NCBI GenBank assembly: GCA_951406725.2
Contig: OX597837.1
Coordinates: 28,520,001 to 28,584,000, forward strand
Length of the DNA stretch: 64,000 nt
Source of the DNA: Octopus vulgaris
Lineage: Eukaryota
Reading direction: 5' to 3'
The position numbers were made by a program, and so were the translations under genes. The stretch's first letter is position 1. Each line of letters begins with the position of its first letter. The notes beneath the pieces are model-generated. The model had not been told where the DNA came from. It did no database searches and was given only the letters and a program-made list of their open reading frames with translations. This document shows positions 13,462-56,725 of this stretch, piece by piece.

Positions 13462-15362
13462 ATGGATCCAAAGAAAGCTAGCAGTGATACTGGTAAAGGA
13501 AAAAGAAAAATTGGGAGAAAACAATTGAAGTGAAGAAAGAAACCATCGCAAAACACAAAATCTCTCTGATATAAATCGACAATATCTACCATTCCTTAAA
13601 ATAAGGAAGTGACAAAAGCAGCTGATGTTACAAAAATAATGACTGTTATTAATAAACAAAGACCAAAGATACTCGAAGAAGTGGAAAAATTATTGCTTAT
13701 TTTTATAAAGGAGAAGCAGTTAACAGATGACAGTATCAGTGAAGCATTTATTTGGAAGAAAGCATTAGAAATTTATAATGATCGTGTAAAAAGAAAACAA
13801 AACCCCTGGTACAAGTGCTGAAAGTGATACTTTGAATTCAAAGCTAATAGAGGCTGGTTCGAGAAATTTAAGTGAAGTGGAACGCATGCTGTGATTAGGC
13901 ATGGAGAGGTGGCGAGTTCAAACAAGGAAGCGGCTGAGAAATTTGTGATTGAGTTTAGTGACTTGACAAAAGGAGGTTATCTCTCCCAACAGGTGTTTAA
14001 CGGGGATGAAACAGGATCATTTTGGAAACGAATGCTAAATAGGACCCATATTACTAAGGAGGAAAAAGCGTTGCCAGGATACAAGCCAATGAAACATAGA
14101 CTCGCTCTTTTGCTTTGCGTCAACGCAAGTGGCGATTTCAAGGTCAAGCCATTGCTTGTTAACCATTCCGATAATCAGAGGGTTTTCAAAAGAAAAAATG
14201 TTATGAAGAATAAATTGCTTGTTATGTGGCGAGTTACAGGCAATTTTTTATTGAATGGATTCATAAAGTTTTTTCTCCGAATACTAAAAAATATCTGCAG
14301 GAAAAAATGCCTTCTCGTGATAGACAATGCTCCCGCTCACCCTCCAGGTTTGGAGGATAACTTAGTTGAAGAATTTGATTTTATTCAGGTCAAATACCTG
14401 CCACCTAACGCAATTGCTCTAAAACAACCAATGGTCATTGAAAACTTTAAGAACCTTTATTCAAAAGCCAAAGCCCTGTTTCGAAAGTGTTTTTAAGTCT
14501 CAGAGAATTTTGGAAATATTTCAATATCCTGAATTGTGTTAATCTTATTGATAATGCATGGAACCATGAATTCAGCATGGAGGAAACTTTGGCCAGACTG
14601 TGTACCAGAACGAGACGACTTTGAGGGTTTGAGACAGCTACAAGTACTGCTGCTGTCGAGGAAGTTGCAATTGTTGATGATAATGTCTCTATGGGAAAAA
14701 CTATGGGTTTGAATGTCGACAGTGAAGATACTGAAGAGCTGGTGGAAGACCGCCGTAGTGAGCTTACCACCGAAGAACTCGTACACTTTCAAAATGAACA
14801 GCAAAAGACTTTGACTGAGGAAATGTCTTCTGAGGAGGTGGAAGGAAAGGAGGATGTCCCAAGTTCTTTAATCAAAGAAATGCGTGTTAAATGAGGTGAT
14901 GTGCAAAGTTTTGTGGGAAAATATCACCCTGAAACAGTGGTAGCAAATAGAGCGGTGAATGAGACAATTTCATGTCTCATTCTAGAAACATTTTACAAAA
15001 GCAGGCAAAGCAACTAACATTGAACAGGATTTTACTGTAAGAAAAATGAAAAGAAACCCCAGAGAAAGATTTACCTGAGCCAAAGAGACATATATGGGAA
15101 GAAACCCCCGAAAGACAGTTACCAGACATTTTTATGGAAGGGGACTCCCCTTCTAAGAAATAACACTATTTGTGTGTTGTTTACACTCTGATTAAACGTT
15201 TTTATACTAAAATATATAGTGTAAGCATGTAAATATGCATTCATCTGGTGCTTGGAAACGAATTAATCTCTTTTACATTAATTGTAATGGGAAAATATGA
15301 TTCGGTTCTCGAACGGTTTTAGAACAGACTTTCAGAACAAATTATGGTCGAGAACCGAGATT
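13462..15362 (+). mobile_element. Tigger/pogo DNA transposon remnant (TIGD1-like transposase pseudogene)
   Basis: MDPKKAS start, CENP-B-type HTH pieces, HGEVASS, QQVFNGDETGSFWKRM, LLVIDNAPAHP and YLPPN, ending GDSPSKK* near 15162. Stops and frameshifts throughout. Confidence 0.9.
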
Positions 15363-16589: not shown

Positions 16590-19500
16590 ATGGGTGATGT
16601 AGTTTATCCATGGATGCGACAAAGACCATCTAGTCATCCTGGGGTGGAGGTGGGCTTGTTTTGTGAGTCCGCAGATGGCTAAGTGGGGCCAATCTGCGCC
16701 CGAAAGAGTCTTTGACAGTGTCGACAGGAAATGGTAGCGCTTGCTACAGGGTTGTTAGCTCTGTTCTTCCTGGCTTGTCTGCGGTCTTCTGCAGCAGCGA
16801 TCCTATTGGTCTCGCATGTGTTGGCACCCTTGTGGACAGCTGATCGCCACCCTTCTCTGTCTAGAGCAGACTGCTCCCAAGTGTCATGGTCGATGTTGAA
16901 GGCTTTCAACGAGGCATTCAGTGTGTCCTTAAAGCGCTTCTTCTGGCCGCCTTGTGAGCGCTTTCCCTTTTGCAGCTCGCCAAAGAGCAATCTTTTTGGT
17001 AATCGATCGTCTGACATACGAGCTACGTGCCCTGCCCAGCGAAGCTGAGACTGCATCAAGATGGTATGGATGCTGGGCAGGTTAGCACGTATTAGTACCT
17101 CGGTGTCCGGGATCCTGTCCTGCCACTTTATGCCGAGAGGTTTTCTAAGGCGTATTGTATGAAAGTGGTTCAGCTTCCTGGCATGACGACAGTAGACCGT
17201 CCAGGACTCGCAGCGTTGTGAGAACAACAGCCCGGTACACCTTGATCATGATGGTGATCCAGTTCCTGTCACAGACAGTCTTGCGTAGCTTACCTTGGTG
17301 AGTCTAGCGTTGATTTCGTCATCGACGACAACATTTCAAGAGTGTGCTGCCAAGGTAGGTGAACTTGTCCACCGCGTTCAGTCGCTGCCCGTTGATGGTG
17401 ATGTTGGGTTCAACGTAGGGCTTGGTTGGAGCTGGCTGATACCTTACCTCAGTTTTTTTTTTGTATTGATAGTAAGGCCAAAGTTGTTGCCGGCACCAGA
17501 GAACAAGTCAACGCTGCGATGCATGATGGACTCAGTGGCAGCATTGAGAGCGCAGTCATCGGCGAACAGGAGGTCGTTGACGGTGTCTACTGAAACCTTG
17601 GTTTTCGCTTTGAGCCTCCCGAGGTTGAAGACTGAACCGTCGGACCGGTACTTGATGCCTATGTCTGTGTCCCTGAAAGCATCTGTCAGCATGGCTGAGA
17701 ACGTAAGGCTGAACAAGGTGGGAGCAAGGACACATTCTTGTTTCACTCCGTTGGAGACAGGGAATGGATCAGAGGTTTCTCCGTTGTCCTATTCTCTTGC
17801 CAACATGCCATCGCGTAGTTGTCTTACGATGGTGATGAATTTTCTGGGGCATCCATACTTCGCCAAGATTCTCCAGAGACCTTCTCTACTAACGGTATCA
17901 AAGGCCTTGGTCAGGTCGATGTGGGTGGAGCAGAGGTCGACGTTCTTCTCCCGACACTTCTCCTGCAGCTTGTGCTTCTTTCGCTTGTGCTTCTTTGTAG
18001 ATGGCCCAAGGTATTCCATGGCTGTTTCGTACAACGTCACCCGGAGTGCAGCCCAGGCTTCTTCAATATCCTTGCCTTGTAGCACAATGGGGTCCAAGCG
18101 TTGCTCCAATGTATCGGTAAGTAGCTGCTTGTCGTTGTTCTTGTCTTACTCGCAGCAAACACCATGTCGATAGTCCCACGCTCTTTCCAGAAGCTACACT
18201 GGATCTCAGGTAGGAGACCCTACTCTAGGTGTGCAATGAGGCGGTCGAGCAAAACTCTAGCCAGGGATCTTGCCTGGATCTTGATGGACAGCAGTGAAAT
18301 TCCGCGATGATTGTCGCAGATCTGGTGGTTTCCATTTCGCTTGTAGAGGTGGATGATGGAGGTGTCCTTGAAGTCTTGAGGCACTGTCTCGTGCATCCAG
18401 ATGAGCTGAAACAGCTGGTGAATTTTCCTGGTCAGGGCCATACCGCCTCCTTTGAATACTTCAGCTGGGATGGAGTCTGGACCAGGTGCTTTGCCACTGG
18501 ACAGTAGGCGGCATGCTTTCTGAATTTCCTCCAAAGTTGGTTCGACGTCCATTGACTCCTCAACGGGGACTTGAGGTAGCCTATCAATGGCTCCACCATT
18601 GATGGTAGAAGGCCTATTCAGGACGCTGTCGAAATGTTCAGCCCATCTCTCTAATACCTTTTCCTTGTCGGTAATCAGTGTTTCGCCGTCAGGAAGAGAG
18701 ACAGTGTTCTTGCAATATTAGGGCCGTAAACTTCCTTCAAGCTGTCATAGAAATTCTTCATGTTATTTCTGTCTGCAAAGCCCTGGATCATGTCTGCTTT
18801 GCTAAGCCAGGAATCCTGCATCTGGCGCAACTTCGTTTGGATTTTGCTCCGTACAATCCGCAGTCTGTCCTTCTTTGAAACTGACTTGGGATCAGTGAGG
18901 TGAGCTTTGTAAACCCGATGCTTTTTCCTTTAGTAGTTGTTTGATCTCCGCGCAGTTCTCATCAAACCAGTCCTTGTGCTTCTTTGTAGATGGCCCAAGG
19001 TATTCCATGGCTGTGTCGTACAACGTCACCCGGAGTGCAGCCCAGGCTTCTTCAGTATCCTTGCCTTGTAGCACAATGGGGTCCAAGCGTTGCTCCAATG
19101 TATCAGTAAATAGCTGCTTGGCGTTGTTATCCTTCAGTTTGCCGATGTTCAAGCGTTTTGGTTCTTTCCTATTTTGTGGTCGTCTCTTGGGCTGAGTTTG
19201 GATACAAGAAGGCCGTGGTCTGTCCAGCATTCTGCGCCACACATGGTCTTCATAACTCGTACGTCTTGTCTGTCCCTCTTCCTTATGATAACGTAGTCGA
19301 TGAGGTACTAGTGCTTTGAGCGTTGATGCAACCATGATGTTCTGCTGCGGGTGGGCAGGCTAAAGATGGTGTTAGCGACCAGGAGGCCTTGCTCTGCACA
19401 GGTCTGGAGGAGTAGCAGACCGTTGCTGTTGCAGTTGCCAACTCCGTGTTTCCCAATCACTCCTTCCCAGGAGACACTACCACGACCAACTCTCGCATTG

Positions 19501-20985
19501 AAGTCACCTAGAATGATGAGTTTATCTGCGCGGGGAGCCGCGGTGATGACAGAGCTCAAGTCTTCATGATGACAGAGCTCAAGTCTTCATAGAACTTGTC
19601 CTTGGTCTCATTTGGATTCGTCATGGTGGGGGCACAAGCGCTGACAATGGTGTACTTCTGTCCGCGACAGAAGTACACCATTGGCGTCATTAGGCGATCA
19701 GTCATAGCTTTTGGGGGAACCAACCAACTTGCCAGCCAATGTTTGACTTAACTGCAAAGCCAACTCCTGCCTCTCTTCTCTCTTCAGGTCCACATCCACT
19801 CTAAAAGAAAGTGTACCCTGCACCATTTTCCCTGTTGTTCGCCTTCGCCCTGCATCCTGGTTTCGCAGAGAGCAGCAATGTCGATGTTATATCTGGCGAG
19901 TTCATTTGCTATGAGTGCTGTGTGTCTCTGAGGGCTCTCCGACTCGTCTATGGCGAGTTCATTTGCTATGAGTGCTGTGGGCTCTGGGGTCTCTCCGACT
20001 CGTCTATATCAAGAAGCGTACTAACGTTCCAAGCAGCGAGGATGAGTGGTGTACTCTTCGCTCCTTTTCTTTGTTCTTTGTTTCGACCGCAGTGTGTCGG
20101 GTCCCCTCCAGTCGCGGTAGGCTGGCTAGGATAGGCGGCGAGCTGGCAGAAACGTTAGCACGCCGGACGAAATGCTTAGCGGTATTTCGTCTGCGTTACG
20201 TTGTGAGTTCAAATTCCGCCCAGGTCGACTTTGCCTTTCATCCTTTCGGGGTCGATAAATTAAGTACCAGTTACGCACTGGGGTCGATGTAATCGACTTA
20301 ATACCTATGTCTGTCCTTGTTTGTCCCCTTTGTGTTTAGCCCCTTATGGGTAATAAAGAAATAGGTAGGCTGGCTAGGATAGGTGGAGCAGGAAATGTTT
20401 GGGACACCTTTTCTAGTCCGCTCCTCATGCCATGGGGGTGAGCAGTGTGTTCCTAAATAAGACTGCTCAGTCGCCCAGACGGCTGCCGAAATCCACTGCT
20501 GCTCCAGGCCAGTGAATAGCGACCCTGTGGCCCTGATCCGCCTGTGTGCAGGTTTGCTGCTACGACTTCCAGTGTACCCACACCTGTCAATTCGTCGCGT
20601 GCCTGTCGCCACAGGATTTTGGGATAAAGAGGTGGAAAGAAGGATGAAAGATGACTTGTAGCGAGGAAACTTTATTTAAAGTGAGGAAGGGTTGCGCATC
20701 ACCGACCTCACTCTCTCGTCTGAGACGGTTTTAACCAGTGACAAGACCAGATCGAGACGACTGGGGACAGAACCAGATGCAGTGAATGACCAAGATGTCC
20801 TATAGTGCCTCATCTTGCCCTATGCACTCTACGGTGCCCTGTTGTAACCGCCCTCTTCTCCGTTGAAACCGTTCTGGTGGTTTCTTCTGTAGAATGAGCC
20901 GGCTTCAGTCTTCGTATGCGTGGGTAGGCAAGCCCTAACTCGCCGAAGGTTTAAGACCGATCGGCTACCCTCACTTGGTTTATAT
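16590..20985 (-). mobile_element. RTE-clade LINE, near full length, decayed and rearranged
   Basis: EN (LAAWNVSTLLD, LGDFNARVG, NSNGLLLL), RT (KAPGPDSIPAE, DLTKAFDTVSR, KQECVLAPTLF, LFADD) and C-terminal QLRWAGHVARM...CRHCQRLF. Confidence 0.93.
20134..20363 (+). mobile_element. MetaSINE-like SINE B inserted in the RTE 5' region
   Basis: 18-bp TSD ggtaggctggctaggata at 20116-20133 and 20364-20381. Confidence 0.9.
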
Positions 20986-24125: not shown

Positions 24126-24461
24126 AGAGTAAAGAGAGTGGTTTGTGTTGTCAGACTAAGTACACACATACATCGTTTAAAAGATATTAATAGTAGCTTT
24201 CAAAATAATCTATTTATTTATCCTAACTCTGTGTGTTGTGGGTAGGGTAGCAATCGGTTTCTAAATATAAAATGGCGAAATATGAGGTTGATTATATAAA
24301 AGTTTCTTTCTTCAACGCCGGACTAAAATGAGTGGATTGGAGTGGACTGAGTGTGTGTGGGAGAGAGAGAGGTGTATGTACAGAATGGGGGTTTTGTGTC
24401 GATTTTTATGACTGTAAATATATCTGGAATAGAGGAAATAAATAATTCTGAGAAAGAAATC

Positions 24462-24629
24462 TTTACTCTTTTACTTCTTTCAGTCATTTGACTGCGGCCA
24501 TGCTGGAGCACCGCCTTTAGTCGAGCAAATCTACCCCAGTACTTATTCTATCGGTCTCTTTTGCCGAACCGCTAAGTGACGGGGACGTAAACACACCAGC
24601 ATCGGTTGTCAAGCAATGCTAGGGGGACA

Positions 24630-24676
<47 letters not shown>

Positions 24677-24829
24677 CACATATATACAACAGGCTTCTTT
24701 CAGTTTCCGTCTACCAAATCTACTCACAAGGCTTTGGTCGGCCCGGGGCTATAGCAGAAGACACACTTGCCCAAGATGCCACGCAGTGGGACTGAACCCG
24801 GAACCATGTGGTTGGTTAGCAAGCTACTT
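24462..24829 (-). mobile_element. SINE A, 3' part (interrupted by two Tx1-type elements)
   Basis: Stops at aagctactt. The missing head accacacagccactcctgcgcct is at 32303-32325. Confidence 0.9.
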
Positions 24830-25057
24830 TATTTCATATAATTTGCCATTTAGGCATTTACAAAGAGGGGACAAACAAGGACAGACAAATATAAAGGGTG
24901 AAGTAGCTTAACACAGTTACAATTTTCGAATGAAATTACGGATAAGATTATAAACAATGAGTTTTACGAAGACAATGTTTAAAAATATTAATGATCATGT
25001 CGAAGGACGGACACCCAGCCATCCGGGTAGAACCTTTACTTTCTGATCCGGTCACAC

Positions 25058-28000
25058 TTACCTGGTGCCAAACATACCCATCTTGCATGCTACAGGCTTC
25101 CATCTTTTCACAAACATATCTCGTGACAGACACCACTTCTCCAGCCTGATTTTGCTACTGAGGTGGTAACTAAAAAAGTTAATCAACCCCTGGCCGGAGA
25201 CAAAGGTGCCTGTCACTATACCTTTCGTACGCGTCTTCCATACTGTTTCTTTCAGTATGGCTACTACACAGAAAAAACAAGCCTTTCTTTCCCTGTTAAG
25301 GAAAGGGGGCGGCACAATCTCGATGATAGACTCAGCTGATAGCTGTACTCTTCCCATCACTGACAACAGTTGTTCAACAAAAGCTATCAGTCCCGATAAC
25401 TCCGGACACTCCACGAATGCGTGCAAGACGGTCTCCCTATCCTGCTCACATCGCGGGCATGTCGGCGAGACGGCACTACCGTGCCTTGACAGCTTGTCGC
25501 GAACAGGTAAAGCCGCACGGAAACACTGCCAGGCCAGGGATTTCTGGTAATTATCCAGATACCCCGGCCCGAACGTCCTCCGGAACAGGTTGACCAACTG
25601 ATTTTCATTGTAGCCCAGGGTCTCCCCCAAGGCGTCTTCGGACTTAACCTCCACTAACCCGCTATAGAAATCCGTGGTGGAACTCCTGTTGCCGGCGTTG
25701 CCCACCCGAGAGAGTAGCTGGAGCGCCTGACGGCACTCCAAATGCCATTCACTCAGTTTAGGTCTCCGCTTGATCCATGCACCGATGTCCGTTAGGGATG
25801 TTAACTGGGGAAGGTAGAACCGGACGTGCGGTGACCACACCTGCTCTCCATCCAGGTAAAGCCAGAGGTGCCTCAACCTTAACGCGAGTTTTCACATCCT
25901 CAGCCAAGGCATCCCTAGCCCACCCTTTAGCGGTTTCTGGCAGCAGACAGAGCGCTTTACAAGTGGCTTTCCTCCTTTCCACAAAAATCGGAAAAGGATT
26001 CTCTCCAACTTGTTCAGCCACAAATCGGGGCAAGGCACCACGGTCAGACGGTAGGTGATTACTGATGCTATAAACATCTGCACCACCTCCGCCTTCCCTA
26101 GCAGGGATAACGCCCGCCCAGACCAGGTCTGGGTTAGAGCGGTCACCTTGTTGGCCACCTCACTCCAATTTTTCTCAATCTGGAGGTCTGGCCCGAACCA
26201 GACTCCGAGCAGCTTAACAGGACCTTCCGTCCAACGCCCTACGACGTTATTGGACGGCATCGGCTTGCCCCTCCAGGTGCCGAGTTGCAAACCGACCGAC
26301 TTGTCCTTGTTAACCTTTGCTCCTGCCACCGCCTCGTAGCTTTTGATGGCCTCTTCCACCACTGGAAGCTGGCCTTCGTCTGCCACGATGATGGAGGTGT
26401 CATCCGCATACGCCGTAGCTCCTCTTCCACACCATAGATCATGCGGCGTGCCCCCTAGTGCCTCCAACTTCCGCAGCAAAGGCTCAAGAGCCAATACGTA
26501 TAGGAGCGAGGACAGGGGACACCCTTGACGAACTGAACGCTCGATCCTGAACGGCTTCGAAAAGGAACCGTTCACCTTGACTACAGACTCGATGTCGCTA
26601 TACAAAGCAGCGATCCAACCTCGAAAGGTCGGGCCAACCTCGAAAGGAGGACCGCCGCCAAGTACCGATGGTCGACCCTATCAAATGCTTTGGACTGGTC
26701 TAAATGTACCAGTGCTCCCCCTGCGCCAGAAAGCTTCCCCACCCTCTCTAAGGAGTAGCGTATAAGGTGGAGATTGTCGTAGATCGTTCTGCCAGGGATA
26801 GCGCACGTTTGCGCTTCCCCGACAAGTTTGTCCACGACCCGCGCCAACCTTTTTGCTAGCACCTTGGCCAGAATCTTTAACTCTGTGTTCAACAGAGTTA
26901 TGGGCCTGAAGTTCCCTATCTCGTCCCCCTTGTTCGGGTCCTCCTGATCAACGTCACAACCCCCGGCTCGCAGACTTGGGAATTCTCCCATTCTGCTGCC
27001 AGTTTGCGTAGACGCTAGCCAGCAGGTGCCCGAACAAGTCTGGCATACTTTTATAAAATTCATAGAGCAGACCATCGAGACCCGGCGACTTCTCCCCGGG
27101 GCACTTGCCCAACACCTCGATTACCTCCTCGGCTGTGATTGGCCCTTCACAGCACTCAGCCTCCCGTGTCGAGAGGCGCGGGCCACCAGACAGGAAGTCC
27201 CTAAGGGCCTCACCATGATCCAGCGTCCCGCACCTCCCGAACAACTCGGCGAAGTGCTTGTGAAGTGCCTCACACATCTCGTCCCGCTTCTTGATCGTGC
27301 ATCCGTTTTCATCAACAAGAGACCCAATTGTGGCATCGTTTCCACACTGTGTTTCTATCGTACGGGCCCATCCGGCAACATTAATTCCCTCACGGCCCAA
27401 TGCTCGTACTTTAGCCCGAACTCTACATCCCTCATGTTTGGTTTGCCGTTCTCGCCGCTAAAATGTGAGATGCAGAGCCCAACCTCAACGCCTCCTCTAA
27501 GTTCTTAACTAGTTGCCCTTCTATTCTAGCCCTATCTAGTCTTAGTTGTTTACTAAATCTAATGGACTCGAATCGAATGGCTCTTTTGAGGGCGAACCAC
27601 CACCGATTATTAACCACGGCTCCGGTTAACGCCCTCTGCACTAACACCTTAATCCGGCTACGGTATGCCTCGCGTGTCAAAATAGACTTGTTCAGCTTCC
27701 AGTAGCCGGTTCCTATCTTAAGTGTGCTATCTATGTCCAGTCTACACGTGACCATTCTATGGTCAGTATAGGGCACCTGGACGAGCTGTGGATAACTAAA
27801 ACTAGACTTATCTCTTGTTCTTATCACTATCCTGTCTAGATAAGACTTGAACCTTCCGTCGCCACTCATCCAGGTCCACTCTGGGACGTTCGGATGGTCA
27901 AGTCTGTAACGATCTGCCAGCTGAAACCGCTTAATCAGATCCACGAGACGTGAGTTTACTTTCCTATAGATCGAGCCAACGCTATCGATGTGAACGTCAA

Positions 28001-28436
28001 CGATAGCATTAAAGTCCCCTAATATCACTAAAGTCTTCGACGTCACGAGAAAGCCCTCTAGGCGCCGATAAAAATCAGTTTGGAAACCTCTAGCACAAGG
28101 TGCATAGAGTCCGATCAGCCTGAAGGCCTTACTGCTGTATGTCACATCAAGGACGACCAGCCCACCTTCTGGGTCTACATAGACTGTACTTGTCTGCAGA
28201 GCCAAGTCTTTACGGATCAGTACCACTACACCCCCTCGCCCTCCGGTCTGGCCAGGAGACATGATTTTCTCGTAGCCATTCAGGAGAGGCGAGAAGGTTT
28301 GTAGGCTGTCCAGCTTGGTCTCTGTAGCAACCATCACATGTATATCATGTGATCTGAGGTCGTCGAAGAAACAAGCCTGCTTCCACTTCGAACTCAGACC
28401 ACGCACATTTAAACAACCAAGGTTAAGCGAAGCCAT
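25058..28436 (-). pseudogene. Tx1-like ORF2: AP endonuclease, reverse transcriptase and C-terminal zinc motif, frameshifted
   Basis: MASLNLGCLNVRGL, GDFN, SYLDR and TDH (APE); KSPGLDG, FRPITLLN, KAFDRV, VRQGCPLS and AYADD (RT); CPRCEQDRETVLHAFVEC. Confidence 0.93.
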
Positions 28437-28453: not shown

Positions 28454-29906
28454 CTACTTACATTTCGTTGGAGAGGTGGGGGCCGACCTCACCACACGTT
28501 TGTGGGCCCCTTCTTTCTCCTCCTTCTTCAAATAGTCCGGCGAGTTCGCGATATGCCGGATGGCGTTTGGGTGTCTGTCTTTTAATTGTTTGAACGTTGT
28601 TTCCGCAATCCACGCGTATCTCTCATTTCGATCTTTGTATTTGTTGTACAGTCTTGCTGACTGATGCCGAACCACAATATCGTTTATGTATTTGTTTTGT
28701 GTGTCGAATTCAATTAATATGGGTTCGTTTTTTTTTTGTCTTCTTTTTCTGGGCCAGTTGAGCGGGATTTTTTTTTTCGTGTCTGTGGTGTGTCTTTGTT
28801 TTCATTATTTTTTATAGGGGATGTGGACGGGGATGATGCACGAATTCTTTTACGAACTGGTGTAAATCCCCCCTCTGATACTTCCATGGTATCGTCTGGG
28901 GTAGCAATAGTTTGTTCATTAGGCGCCGCAGTTTTTAAGGGGGTGGGAGGTTTTAATAATGTAGGGGTTTGTGCGTGCGAGGGCTGGGTTTTTTCTTCAG
29001 TTTGTTTTGGGGTTGGCACCGTAACAGCAGGAGTGGGATTTTTTGTTTTTGTAGGGGTAAGTGAGTTTGCAAGGGTAGGGATTTTTTAATTATCTGAGGG
29101 GCCTGGTGTCTGCGGTTTCTTTTGCTTGTCTGGACAGTCTACACGAATGTGGCCCTTTTTGCCGCAGGCGTAACAGGTGGGTTTTCGGCCTTCGACCTGT
29201 ACCCTGAGGGCTACGTTCTCGCCCACGAGTATCACCGGGTACCTGTGCCCAGCCATTCTCAGGAAGGAGCTGCAGGTCCTCCGGTGTTCCTTGAATTAAT
29301 ATATTAATGTTACGCCCAAGCCAATATAGAGGGGCAGAGCATGTTACTTGTAGTATTTTAATTTTGTCCGCCCTTTTATATAACAGGGCGGCCACTACCT
29401 CTACCGGATCTACTTCCGGCGGGGCTTCTGCAATCCTGACCCGGGACGTCCTGCGTCCCCTATAGCTTGGGAAAAGTACCACCTCCTTGGTTTTTAGGGG
29501 GTTCACAGAATGCCCGCGGGCCACCTCTTCCCCCGAGAAGCGGACATCCACAGTGCCATATGCCCGTCCCCTGGCGACGTACACGATGTCCTTCCAAATC
29601 GGGGACAGGCATTTCTCGATGGTGTTTTTTTCAAAGTGTTTGAATCTTCTGCTTTGTGGAACAGAAGGTTTTAAGCACTACGGTCCGCTTCTCGGTCTCC
29701 ACGATACTGGCGGAGGGTGATATTTTAACATCACCACCCTCCTCTTGCATTCTTTTAAATAGCTCGACGAGCTGATTGACAATGATGTCAATGTTCTCGG
29801 TAGCCACTGTGGCTACCGCAGAAAATTTTTTAACATTGCTCTCCTCAAGAGCACTACTTTCGTGAATAATCTCAACAGACATTATTCTGTTGAAATTAGA
29901 CAACAC
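28454..29906 (-). pseudogene. Tx1-like ORF1 (nucleic-acid binding, CCHC zinc knuckle), frameshifted
   Basis: ORF pieces 29631-29906, 29090-29584, 28714-29019 and 28454-28675. Knuckle CYACGKKGHIRVDC near 29135-29176 in a shifted frame. Confidence 0.85.
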
Positions 29907-30296
29907 AAAAATTACGAATATTGGTTTCCCACAAAACTGGGAAACCTATAGAAAGTTTTTCTTCCAAAGTAGTTCAATAAGTGGTAAAAAGCAGTTCAAA
30001 AAATTCCAATTCCCACCCCCATTCGGGGGAGGGGCACGAAAATAGTCTGGCAGGACTATATATAGTCACGTAGAAAAAAGCCACAATGGCTAACAGTTCA
30101 ATGGTAAGAAATTATCCAATTATTCCCCAGTAAAACCGGAGAACAAGACAGTTCAACAACGTTCAAAAACAAATTTTCAGTAGTAAAAATTCAACAATTA
30201 ACAACACAGCAAAACTCTTACCGGGAAGAAAACGCGTCCAAACCGTAGTAAGGTAAGCAAAGTCATTCTTCAGTCAGTGAGGTTAGAAAGCTACTT

Positions 30297-32288
30297 TATT
30301 TTATATAATTTGCCACTAGGGCAGCACACAGAGTAGTAGCTACGGGCTGGACAAGGACATTAATGGATGATGGTGGTGGTGGATGAAGATGGTGATGGGA
30401 GAAGTCGAAAGCGCCCGCCGACTTTCGCTTCTCTAAAACAATGTTTCAATAAATACATTTAATAAAATGTTCACAATGATTCAAATTACATAAAAAATGT
30501 TCAACAATTCTCCTCGTCAGGTCCCCGAAGCAAATTGTCTTGCCGCCTGCAGACAACTCTGCGACGACAAGTCGGGGCCTGCAAAGAGAAAAGTAAAATC
30601 TTTCCTTTCAAAGGTCTCTGCGACCCTTGACAAAGTATCTTCCGTTACTTTTTCCGCAGCTACCCACGGAGGCCATAACGGACTCCTTGAGCCGACCGTG
30701 CCCTTACGTTCTCGGTCACCCAAGCCATTCAAAAATATTTCCACCTCCTCTCCCTTGTGGTAAAGGAGGAGAAGCATCTCCTCTTCACAGGAAGGGGCCT
30801 CACACTGCTCCGTCAGTGGCACACTTCCTACTGGCGGAGCCTTGTCCGCGGGTGGCACACATCCCACCTGCGGCTCCGTCGGCGACACAAAAACGTCAGT
30901 CGTCCGACCTCTCCTTTTTCTCCTCCTTCTTTTGGGGGAGACTGCTGACCCAGGGGACTCCGTCACCAGACACGGGGGATTGCTATCCCCCTCCGCCCCC
31001 TGAGCGTTCTTTGGCGGGCAACCATTGTTGCTCGCCTGTCTCTTTCTTTTCGTGGAGGCAACCTCCTCCACGACTTCCACCGTCTCCCCCTCCAATGAGG
31101 GGGCGGCGGGCGCCTTTTCCCCTTTCTGCTCCGGGGCACCACCACGGCCCCCGGGACAATTCTTCCTGATATGTCCGGGCTTCAGGCACAGGTGACACTT
31201 GGTGGGAGCGACCCTCGAGTATCACCGGGTACCTGTGCCCAGCCATTCTCAGGAAGTCCGGGAATTTCATTTCTCCCACAGCCACCGGTGTCCACAGGGT
31301 CAAAGTTGCCTTTGACCCCTCCCAGGCGACCGCGGGAGCCATTTTCACACTCAGTAGTCTGGGTCCGCTATCCCCCAGGCCTCGCCGGATGGTCTTCTCG
31401 ATCCATTCCGCCTCCGTGCCCGGGGGCAGCCCACACACCCAGGCTCTTTTTACTTTTCTGCCACAATACGAGGGGAGGAACAAAATTTCCTCTCCCTCCA
31501 GTGGCTCGCTAGCAAATCTGCTAGCTTCCTCGGGGGTACCAAACAGCAACCACACCGTTGCAAATTTAGTCCCCCGAGAAATAAATTTTATAGTTGGCAG
31601 GTGGTCCCCCAACTCTTTCTCTATAGTATTCCTGTCGAAGAGGGCAATGGCTCCACGCGACCTAGAATAGGTTCGTAGGACCACCGTCCTCTTCTCAAGA
31701 CTTTCAATCCACTGCTTGGGTGGGACGACCTCCCATTCCAAAGCGGTGGTTTCTTTTGTTGCCATGTTTTTTTGGGTTTTTTTTTAAATAAATGTATTCA
31801 GAATAAAACTAAAAAACGAGAAGAAAAGGAAATCCGAAGAAAGTCACAATGAAAAAAGGAGAGAGTCAAATAAAGTTAAAAAGAAAGTCAAATAAAGTTA
31901 AAAAGAAAGTCAATAACACAGCAAAATCCTTTTGGCCATTTGGTACTCCCGGCCTAAATCGAACCAGGATCGCACAACTTCCACAAAAATTGGTGTAAAA
32001 TTGGTAGTTCTTCACAGCACAATACAATTCTCACAATTCGAAGACGGATACTCCCAAAAAATTTTCTCAGCGAGAAAAATATATTTGCCACATGTCGGCA
32101 GAATCAGAATTCTGAATCCAGTAGGACTTCCTGCATGTAAAAAATAATTCTCAACAAAAACTCCCACTGGACCCAGAAAACAGAATCTTACCTTACATGG
32201 GGTTTCCAAAGTTTTCAATTCAAGACGGCTTCAAAAGCACATCTTCACCGCTTCAGTGTCAAACACAACACTGACTCGCACATGCGCA
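30297..32288 (-). mobile_element. ORF1-only (HAL1-like) non-autonomous Tx1-related element
   Basis: ~520 nt 5'UTR, one ORF1 and a ~220 nt 3'UTR whose end resembles the neighbour's (ggcaaattatat-aaata). No EN or RT. Target repeat gtaagaagctactt at 32289-32302. Confidence 0.8.
30517..31765 (-). pseudogene. Divergent ORF1 (~415 aa, one frameshift near 31200) with CCHC knuckle
   Basis: EKRTVVLRTY...NTIEK...LFLPSYCGRK aligns with the neighbour's EKRTVVLKTF...NTIEK...LFPSYRGRR. CHLCLKPGHIRKNC follows the shift and runs into ORF 30517-31095. Confidence 0.8.
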
Positions 32289-32334
32289 GTAAGAAGCTAC
32301 TTACCACACAGCCACTCCTGCGCCTGGTTATACA

Positions 32335-43608: not shown

Positions 43609-43973
43609 CCCTTTAGTGTTCACATCATTCTGCCAAAATTAATGCTTTTTTCTCCACATTGTTTTGAACTAATCATGCATCATCTTGTAGCTATGAGATT
43701 TTGATGAGGTAGCTGTTAATTTTTAAAACGATATTGTAGGGTTGGTCTGAGAGACCAGATCTGGCCAGTTTGAACATAAAACAGGCAGAATACTTTTGGC
43801 CGGATATGGCCGGTTTAAATGCATTATCTTGTAGCTATGAGATTTTGATGAGGTAGCTGTTAATTTTTAAAACGATATTGTAGGGTTGGTCTGAGAGACC
43901 AGATCTGGCCAGTTTGAACATAAAACAGGCAGAATACTTTTGGCTGGATATGGCCGGTTTAAATGCTAAAGGG
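43609..43973. mobile_element. TTAA MITE family 2 with ~145-bp internal duplication
   Basis: ccctttag / ctaaaggg termini with TTAA flanks. Confidence 0.75.
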
Positions 43974-47929: not shown

Positions 47930-48335
47930 ATAGGCGCAGGAGTGGCTGTGTGGTAAGTAGCTTGCTAATAAACCACATGGTTCCGGGTTCAGTCCCACTG
48001 TGGGGCATCTTGGGCAAGTGTCTTCTACTATAGCCCCAGGCCGACCAAAGCCTTGTGAGTGGATTTGGTAGACGGAAACTGAAAGAAGCCCGTCGTATAT
48101 ATATATATACATATATGTGTGTGTGTGTGTGTGCGTGTATGTTTGTGTGTCCATGTTTGTCCCCCTAGCATTGCTTGACAACCGATGCTGGTGTGTTTAT
48201 GTCCCCGTCATTGCGGTTCAGCAAAAGAGACCGATAGAATAAGTACTGGGCTTACAAAAGAATAAGTCCCGGGGTCGAGATGCTTGATTAAAGGCGGTGC
48301 TCCAACATGACCGCAGTCAAAATGACTGAAACAAG
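47930..48335 (+). mobile_element. SINE A
   Basis: Full-length match. Confidence 0.85.
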
Positions 48336-48674: not shown

Positions 48675-49080
48675 TGGCCGTAGCCAAGTACCGCATCGAC
48701 TGGCCTCCGTGCTGTGGGCACGTAACAAACGCCATCCGATCGTGGCCGTCTGCCAGCCTCGTCTGGCACCTGTGTCGGTGGCACATAAAAAACACCATCC
48801 GAGCGTGGCCGTCTGCCAGCCTCGTCTGGCACCTGTGTCGGTGGCACATAAAAACACCATCCGAGCGTGGCCGTTCGCCAGCCTCGTCTGGCACCTGTGT
48901 CGGTGGCACATAAAATCACCCACTACACTCTCGGAGTGGTTGGCGTTAGGAAGGGCATCCAGCTGTAGAAACACTGCCAGATCTGACTGGCCTGGTGCAG
49001 CCTTCGGGCTCCCCAGACCCCAGTTGAACTGTCCAACCCATGCTAGCATGGAAAGCGGACGTTAAACGATGATGATGATG
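48675..49080 (+). mobile_element. (GAT)n-tailed SINE-like repeat D with internal ~60-bp tandem units
   Basis: ggcgttaggaagggcatccagctgtagaaa...ggacgttaaacgatgatgat. Other copies near 9400, 39975, 40500, 43225, 53252, 59200, 61715 and 62040. Confidence 0.8.
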
Positions 49081-49289: not shown

Positions 49290-49750
49290 GTACATGACTA
49301 GTACTTTGACCCCCTGATAGATTGAAGACAATGTTGTGACTGGTACTTTGACCCCCAGACATTTGAAAGGCAATGTTGATCTCCGGGGGATTTGAACCCA
49401 GAATGTCATGACTAGTACTTTGACCCACTGATAGATTGAAGAAAATGTTGTGACTGGTACTTTGACCCCCAGACAGATGAAAGGCAATGTTGATCTCCGC
49501 GGGATTTGAACCCAGAATGTCATGACTAGTACTTTGAACCCCTGATAGATGGAAGACAATGTTGTGACTGGTACTCTGACCCGCCGATAGATGAAAGGCA
49601 ATGTTGATCTCCGTGGGATTTGAACCCAGAATGTCATGACTAGTACTTTGAACCCCTGATAGATGGAAGACAATGTTGTGACTGGTACTCTGACCCACCG
49701 ATAGATGAAAGGCAATGTTGATCTTCGTGGGATTTGAACCCAGAATGTAA
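49290..49750. repeat. ~121-bp tandem repeat derived from a MetaSINE-like segment
   Basis: Four units containing gatgaaaggcaatgttgatctcc...ggatttgaacccagaa. Confidence 0.85.
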
Positions 49751-56167: not shown

Positions 56168-56725
56168 GTGCCGGTGGCACGTAAAAAAGAACCATCCGAC
56201 CGTGGCCGTTTGCCAGCCTCGTCTGGCACCTGTTTCGGTGGCACGTAAAAAGCACCATCCGACCGTGGCCGTTTGCCAGCCTCGTCTGGCACCATCCGAC
56301 CGTGGCCATTTGCCAGCCTCGTCTGGCACGTAAAAAGCACCATCCAACCGTGGCCGTTTGCCAGCCTTGCCTGGCCCCCATGCCGGTGGCACGTAAAAAG
56401 CACCATCCGACCGTGGCCGTTGCCAGCCTCACCTGGCACGTAAAAAGCACCATCCGACCGTGGCCATGTGCCAGCCTCATCTGGCACCTGTGCTGGTGGC
56501 ACGTAAAAAGCACCATCCGACCGTGGCCGTAGCCAGCCTCACCTGGCACGTAAAAAGCACCCACTACACTCAATGAGTGGTTGGCGTTAGGAAGGGTATC
56601 CAGTCGTAGAAACATTGCCAGATCAGACTGGGCCTTTAGGCAGCCTTCTGGCTTCCCAGACCCCAGTTGAACCGTCCAACCCATGCTAGCATGGAAAGCA
56701 GACGCTAAATGATGATGATGATGAC
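56168..56725 (+). mobile_element. Repeat D with expanded internal tandem array
   Basis: About 7 variable units of ggcacgtaaaaagcaccatccgaccgtggcc. Confidence 0.8.

Follow-up and report, generated by a model that had tools for sequence, protein, structure and literature searches.

A candidate ORF1-only, Tx1-type element beside a full-length relative in the head of a tRNA-type SINE of Octopus vulgaris

The window analysed here is a 64-kb stretch (64,000 nt) of Octopus vulgaris contig OX597837.1 and consists of repeat-rich animal DNA. On its minus strand, a tRNA-type SINE is interrupted after its initial 23-32 nt, and two elements, called A (32288-30297) and B (30280-24830), lie in this order, head-to-tail, inside the SINE head and between its two halves. 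The 5' head of the interrupted SINE (32303..32325, minus strand; the A-box side, as judged by eye) continues into the first target copy, and together they are identical to the intact SINE at 47932 at 32/32 positions (32325-32294). Eight near-full-length SINE copies elsewhere in the window were compared with the rest of the SINE (24455..24820, minus strand), which is 77-89% identical to them. ARAGORN predicted no tRNA in the SINEs; for this family and for a second one considered below, the term tRNA-type is based on box-like motifs recognised by eye and on the literature, where octopus SINEs are described as chiefly tRNA-Core and tRNA-Deu (PMC8967140).

The 9-mer AAGTAGCTT is present at 3/3 junctions of the array (starts at 32302, 30296 and 24829). 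Comparison of the junctions places its copies at 32294..32302, upstream of A, at 30288..30296, between A and B, and at 24821..24829, 3' of B, all on the minus strand, and the site is empty in 11/12 SINE heads listed within the window. A target duplication of 9 nt is certain, and one of about 15 nt possible, since at the 5' junctions of both elements the 9-mer is followed by further target-like bases with mismatches, 5 for A (32293-32289) and 7 for B (30287-30281). A and B join the identical target base, both insertions being at one locus.

From its sequence, B appears to be a full-length, now broken, L1/Tx1-type element, the label Tx1 being taken from the ORF1 type and the targeting. Its 5'UTR and broken ORF1 (28457..30280, minus strand; ATG at 29882, with a CCHC motif) were delimited from the ORF list, Pfam and an alignment. 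They are followed by a broken ORF2 (25058..28436, minus strand) with AP endonuclease, RT and zf-RVT matches in Pfam, whose best solved relative is LINE-1 ORF2p, and by a 228-nt 3'UTR (24830..25057, minus strand) carrying a tail common with A, as judged from shuffle tests. Concerning Tx1-clade traits, the ORF1 of A (ORF1-A) combines RRM and CCHC domains, and the ORF2 of B has an AP endonuclease, an RT and a C-terminal zinc motif as in the L1 group. A 14-nt local duplication in the RT of B (26615-26647, minus strand) coincides with a frameshift and resembles a templated repair scar. Both elements are broken now, A once and B by at least eight lesions (hand count). Taken as a measure of relative age, the lesion density does not differ significantly between them (P 0.22-0.32, with 9-11 lesions assumed in B).

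Element A starts with a T-rich 5'UTR of 523 nt (31766..32288, minus strand) containing a 22-nt tandem repeat and six short uORFs. The first-pass annotation had described it as the element's own, and it resembles the 5'UTR of B no better than shuffled sequences do (143/500 reach the score). ORF1-A runs on the minus strand from the ATG at 31765 to the stop codon at 30519-30517, that is, 1246 nt or 415 codons plus one base, in agreement with the ORF of about 415 aa, with a CCHC knuckle and a single frameshift, that had been read from the sequence. Residues 1-186 form two RRM-fold domains (31208..31765, minus strand) according to AlphaFold, Foldseek and the alignment. The break, at 31204..31207, falls immediately before the knuckle; P0002, a homolog from O. 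sinensis, aligns gap-free over it, so that it is confirmed as one +1 frameshift. The C-terminal half (30517..31203, minus strand), delimited by alignment and Pfam, consists of the CCHC knuckle, a low-complexity linker with a basic stretch and a C-terminus of about 130 aa ending in TGA. By eye the knuckle (31197-31156) is complete, its Pfam zf-CCHC match (E=0.036) being below the curated cut-off.

After ORF1-A comes directly a 3'UTR of 220 nt (30297..30516, minus strand), short as previously described, with a predicted hairpin and the tail common with B. It has a single AATAAA at its end and no poly(A), and A terminates in AAATA abutting the target copy. The hairpin, at about 30433-30399, has a z-score of -2.5 and is matched by 2/200 shuffles. 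A hairpin is also predicted in the 3'UTR of B (about 25015-25030, minus strand), and the two are possible cis signals. As for ORF2, its reported absence from A was borne out by tblastn searches with five pieces of the B ORF2 (best E=0.67), an assessment made against the ORF2 of B only. A thus combines the ORF1-bearing 5' portion of a LINE with the 3' end of one.

A 5'UTR intron is possible in both elements: close to the 5' end of each there is a donor-like GGTAAG, and a short distance ahead of the ORF1 ATG an acceptor-like AG. At this motif level, the donor of A is at 32191 and its acceptor at 31809, with a strong pyrimidine tract; for B they are at 30221 and about 29888, with a pyrimidine tract under the threshold set.

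One copy of A is present in the 64-kb window, with no further ones detected. Among GTDB contigs, the tail pattern gave 0 matches and the protein search 62 pattern matches, of which 0 were confirmed, and no copies were found in plasmids. Comparison of A with Rfam returned AT-repeat miRNA noise only, and ARAGORN found no tRNA in it. The possibility that A is a SINE, that is, a non-coding element with a head derived from a small RNA, was ruled out by the 415-codon ORF and by the lack of a tRNA or a credible Rfam match.

The AlphaFold model of residues 1-188 of ORF1-A, computed from a 33-sequence alignment, comprises two domains at a pLDDT of 85.8. Its best PDB matches in Foldseek are tandem RRMs, e.g. 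those of hnRNP A1 and Raver1 (E ~1e-4), with a TM-score of about 0.3 that is explained by RRM domains either differently oriented or just loosely alike. P0002 was placed by Atlas among zf-CCHC and ZCCHC3-RBD clusters. ORF1-A is accordingly modelled as an RRM-RRM-CCHC protein with an RNA-binding fold, and the association of RRM and CCHC domains corresponds to the type I ORF1 as described in PMC5203782, in keeping with Tx1. Concerning the suggestion that A supplies its own RNA chaperone, the RNA-binding fold stands as a prediction; the chaperone role would follow from that fold, and this copy is frameshifted before the knuckle.

No homolog was found for the last ~130 aa of ORF1-A: P0002 stops at 281 aa, and a weak search gave 0/414 candidates. 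Homology to the C-terminus of the B ORF1, plausible by eye, was rejected by shuffling (1565/2000) and by hhalign. Compared with the post-RT piece of the B ORF2 alone, these residues give a marginal score (31/1000 shuffles), which is not significant against the whole B ORF2 (53-247/1000 protein shuffles). Owing to this marginal match of the orphan 130 aa, a fused ORF2 remnant at the C-terminus of ORF1-A is possible.

A search of 1.84 billion representatives for homologs of ORF1-A returned 35 matches, a single one of which is close. This is P0002 (O. sinensis LOC115225585), an uncharacterised 281-aa protein in a single-member cluster, 67% identical to ORF1-A over residues 1-186, that is, over the RRM region, and sharing its shortened start and linker motifs. 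Unlike A, P0002 is 130 aa shorter and has lost the first Cys of the knuckle, probably as a decayed copy. P0011, a chimeric gene model, has 46 A-like residues, which agree with A at 27/46 positions and with P0002 at 29/46; these residues are joined to a region that looks integrase-like by eye, and they are evidence of a third A-type copy. Two more A-type ORF1 copies are thus known here, as proteins alone, at 57-67% identity. In A, P0002 and P0011, ORF1 begins at the same point, about 50 residues later than in B-type ORF1s, whose N-terminal segment of about 50 aa is missing from ORF1-A.

Two of the matches, P0012 and P0034, are repeat-protein false matches and were left out of the alignments, and the chimeric P0011 and P0032 were left out of alignment A1. 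The ORF1 tree comprises 26 sequences, namely A, B and 24/35 matches; in this tree, which is midpoint-rooted only, A and P0002 form a long-branch clade with a support of 0.997. Their identity is concentrated in the RRM and knuckle regions (137/204 positions, vs. 34/75 in the linker; Fisher p=0.0013), and this domain bias indicates selection on an active lineage. At the sequence level, these data support an ORF1 lineage proper to A and apparently conserved by domain. An autonomous family would show purifying selection on its ORF1 just as well, and conservation is silent on ORF2. A-type ORF1 was found fused to EN or RT in 0/35 matches and, by a weak search, in 0/783 longer candidates; the lack of fused proteins is weak evidence, because ORF1 and ORF2 occupy separate frames in B.

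Between A and B, ORF1 identity is 31/115 (27%) by BLASTP and 59/204 (29%) in the multiple alignment. With its 67% identity to P0002, A is not a deletion derivative of its neighbour, as had been argued from the distance between the two ORF1s. The distance excludes B alone as parent and says nothing beyond that, since the B ORF1 is also just 23-28% identical to 6/23 other ORF1s of the tree.

The 3'UTRs of A and B are similar in length (220 vs. 228 nt), and the tail that they were reported to share was recovered: over the final 27 nt (30323-30297 in A), 23 positions are identical, a score reached by 0/1000 shuffles, and a weaker resemblance extends out to 30361. Over 65 nt, the two 3' ends match better than 2000/2000 shuffles. 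A 21-nt motif of the tail occurs twice in the 64 kb, in A and B only, for 0.01 expected. Towards the stop codon, the resemblance is in doubt: from the stop codon of A onwards there is a weak collinear local match between the 3'UTRs (6/200 shuffles), but when the final 35 nt are omitted a global test no longer picks up any similarity (236/500 shuffles). The second tRNA-type SINE family carries the tail of B in 4/4 copies tested (0/2000 shuffles each), and its tails match that of A significantly in 1/4 copies only. Tails in common have been described as a signature of tail-dependent LINE partners (PMC3747384), and the tail of A, B and the SINEs is therefore likely to be a genuine recognition signal that can be used in trans.

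An exact stretch of 41 nt, absent from the first-pass annotation, is present in both ORF1s (31256-31216 in A, 29266-29226 in B, minus strand). Upstream of it, codon-aligned identity between A and B is 105/255, and the chance of such a stretch is about 3e-16 per position. In A (31216..31256) it is in frame and native, as P0002 carries the same peptide. In B (29226..29266) it is foreign and A-derived, because 25 nt replace one codon of the family alignment, and the frame is shifted there. This patch may have arisen by local repair templated by A, by an RT template switch between co-packaged RNAs or by assembly error; local repair is preferred, B also having the 14-nt local duplication.

Taken together, we estimate at roughly 60% the probability that A belongs to a non-autonomous Tx1-type family that has ORF1 only and is mobilised in trans. 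The main argument is the clean junction between ORF1 and the 3'UTR, without ORF2 remnant; the main limit is the single copy. That this family should also be long-lived is a more tentative proposition, to which we give somewhat less than an even chance. Judging from the one copy examined, A probably moves with the copying enzyme of a relative, since its insertion spot and 3' end match those of a full-length relative. The proposal that A borrows both a Tx1 ORF2 and its target specificity agrees with these observations, the tail and insertion point common with B being those expected of mobilisation by a Tx1-type ORF2p. In such a cycle, A would be transcribed from its own 5'UTR, and intact copies would make an RRM-RRM-CCHC ORF1p that, by its predicted fold, may coat the RNA. 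A B-like autonomous family would then provide the ORF2p, which would recognise the conserved 3' tail in trans, as the common tail and the identical 3' junction suggest, and a B-like endonuclease would nick the SINE head just before AAGTAGCTT, priming reverse transcription. Whichever element came first, a second insertion, into a regenerated target copy, would give the target-A-target-B-target array.

The weak points of an ORF1-only family are its one DNA copy and a locus with repair-like scars, and because of these scars a local deletion is possible. The strongest alternative, which we regard as rather unlikely, is that A arose, as a unique or very recent event, by internal deletion in an unsampled autonomous Tx1 family whose ORF1 is of the A type, at insertion or through later DNA repair, in which case the tail and target would simply be common among related octopus Tx1 families. 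Eighty L1-Tx1 consensus families, 13 of them recently active, are reported for Octopus vulgaris (PMC13282606), and within the group ORF1s differ among themselves as much as A does from B. B itself has repair-like lesions (the 41-nt patch and the 14-nt local duplication), and the orphan C-terminus of ORF1-A could be a deletion product. However, the breakpoints would need to have spared the 415-codon frame and a 3'UTR of normal length, and yet have left no recognisable EN or RT; on a rough argument, just a few percent of random deletions would fit.

The ORF1-only family could also be part of a larger scheme, unlikely when taken as a whole: an octopus three-tier, tail-sharing Tx1 system aimed at SINE heads, made up of autonomous elements, a long-lived ORF1-only lineage and a tRNA-type SINE, with the 41-nt patch due to template switching. 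The lineage would then have been without ORF2 before the split between A and its O. sinensis relative (a third of the residues having diverged), and the patch, from a switch between co-packaged A and B RNAs, would be the direct trace of a mixed particle.

It is very improbable that A and B moved jointly as a read-through RNA of 7.5 kb, with A as a 5' passenger, or that the assembly has created part of the arrangement. The two elements are adjacent and on the same strand, the exact A patch in B shows that both sequences met, and the lesions of B, at least eight, could include sequencing indels; but A carries a tail and an AATAAA of its own, a target copy separates it from B, and A must still first have inserted as an ORF1-only unit. 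Least probable of all is that A was retrocopied from a subgenomic RNA of an autonomous A-type element, spliced so as to retain ORF1 only: spliced LINE-1 insertions exist, such an origin would explain the clean junction, and many copies could then carry the same junction without an independent lineage, but the 5'UTR of A keeps its apparently unspliced donor and acceptor motifs, and the 64-kb window holds no parent element.

Coming back to A as a member of an ORF1-only family, its description as HAL1-like is apt as an analogy, both having ORF1 and no ORF2, but not as an identity. HAL1 has a 3' poly(A) tail, absent from A, and the ORF1 of A is of the wrong type, with RRM and CCHC domains and no mammalian L1-type (Transposase_22, type II) signature, Pfam giving no match to Transposase_22 in ORF1-A; A is therefore not a HAL1. 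Like A, the mammalian HAL1 elements are described as a 5'UTR, ORF1 and LINE 3' end without ORF2, dependent on a partner LINE (PMC5753468, PMC5786205). A differs from them in its type I ORF1 (as defined in PMC5203782), mollusc host, conserved tail, apparently sequence-specific target and a family status that is putative. HeT-A (Jockey clade) and Ag-Sponge (CR1 clade) are also ORF1-only, with a proposed co-assembly with partner proteins (PMC5786205), but belong to other clades than A, which inserts into a SINE head. The bipartite, ORF1-containing non-autonomous LINEs presented in that source come from the L1, Jockey and CR1 clades, with no Tx1-derived case among those described there.

With regard to targeting, Tx1, Keno, Kibi, Koshi and the crocodilian Tx1-Mar resemble A and B in that their preferred target is another repeat and that tandem insertions occur around the target duplication (PMC4494074). 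For crocodilian SINEU-3 and Tx1-Mar, the same source describes trans-mobilisation and successive insertion into a regenerated target. SINEU is a non-coding partner mobilised by Tx1 (PMC4494074), whereas A encodes an ORF1 and its target is the head of a tRNA-type SINE.

In the full-text literature searched, with Repbase, Dfam and subscription journals outside its scope, no Tx1 or mollusc ORF1-only LINE was found; the A family may already sit in Repbase, in Dfam, in the deposited O. vulgaris repeat library or in bioRxiv supplements. Should the family prove real, it would show that parasites keeping ORF1 also arise from a LINE with a specific target and tail recognition, and a partner ORF1 just 29% identical to that of the helper would offer a natural test of why ORF1 is retained (cis need vs. 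co-assembly). A 2-kb cargo with a tail of 30-65 nt aimed at one site would, in addition, delimit the smallest signal that a site-specific integrator requires in cis. As the product of a single deletion, by contrast, A would be a broken LINE of the ordinary kind.

Several other repeats were observed in the window. Tails of the second tRNA-type SINE family end at about 12953 and 12771 on the minus strand and at 20363, 33399 and 58319 on the plus strand; 4/5 copies run on with GGTA, and one runs into the head region of a further copy of its own kind, forming a 187-nt tandem. This may indicate a SINE that is targeted, or inserts into its own kind, with a Tx1-type partner. A decayed LINE at about 16680-19600 (minus strand), which by its motifs we take to be RTE-like, is internally duplicated and retains EN- and RT-like fragments, and the three fragments tested gave no Pfam match. 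A DDE_1 transposase fragment is located at 13876-14496 on the plus strand (E=1.4e-15). Finally, tandem arrays were found at 49293-49748 (period of 114 nt), 48717-48920 (62-63 nt), 56172-56561 (110 nt) and 43675-43966 (144 nt), those at 48.7 kb and 56.2 kb having related 62-63 nt units.
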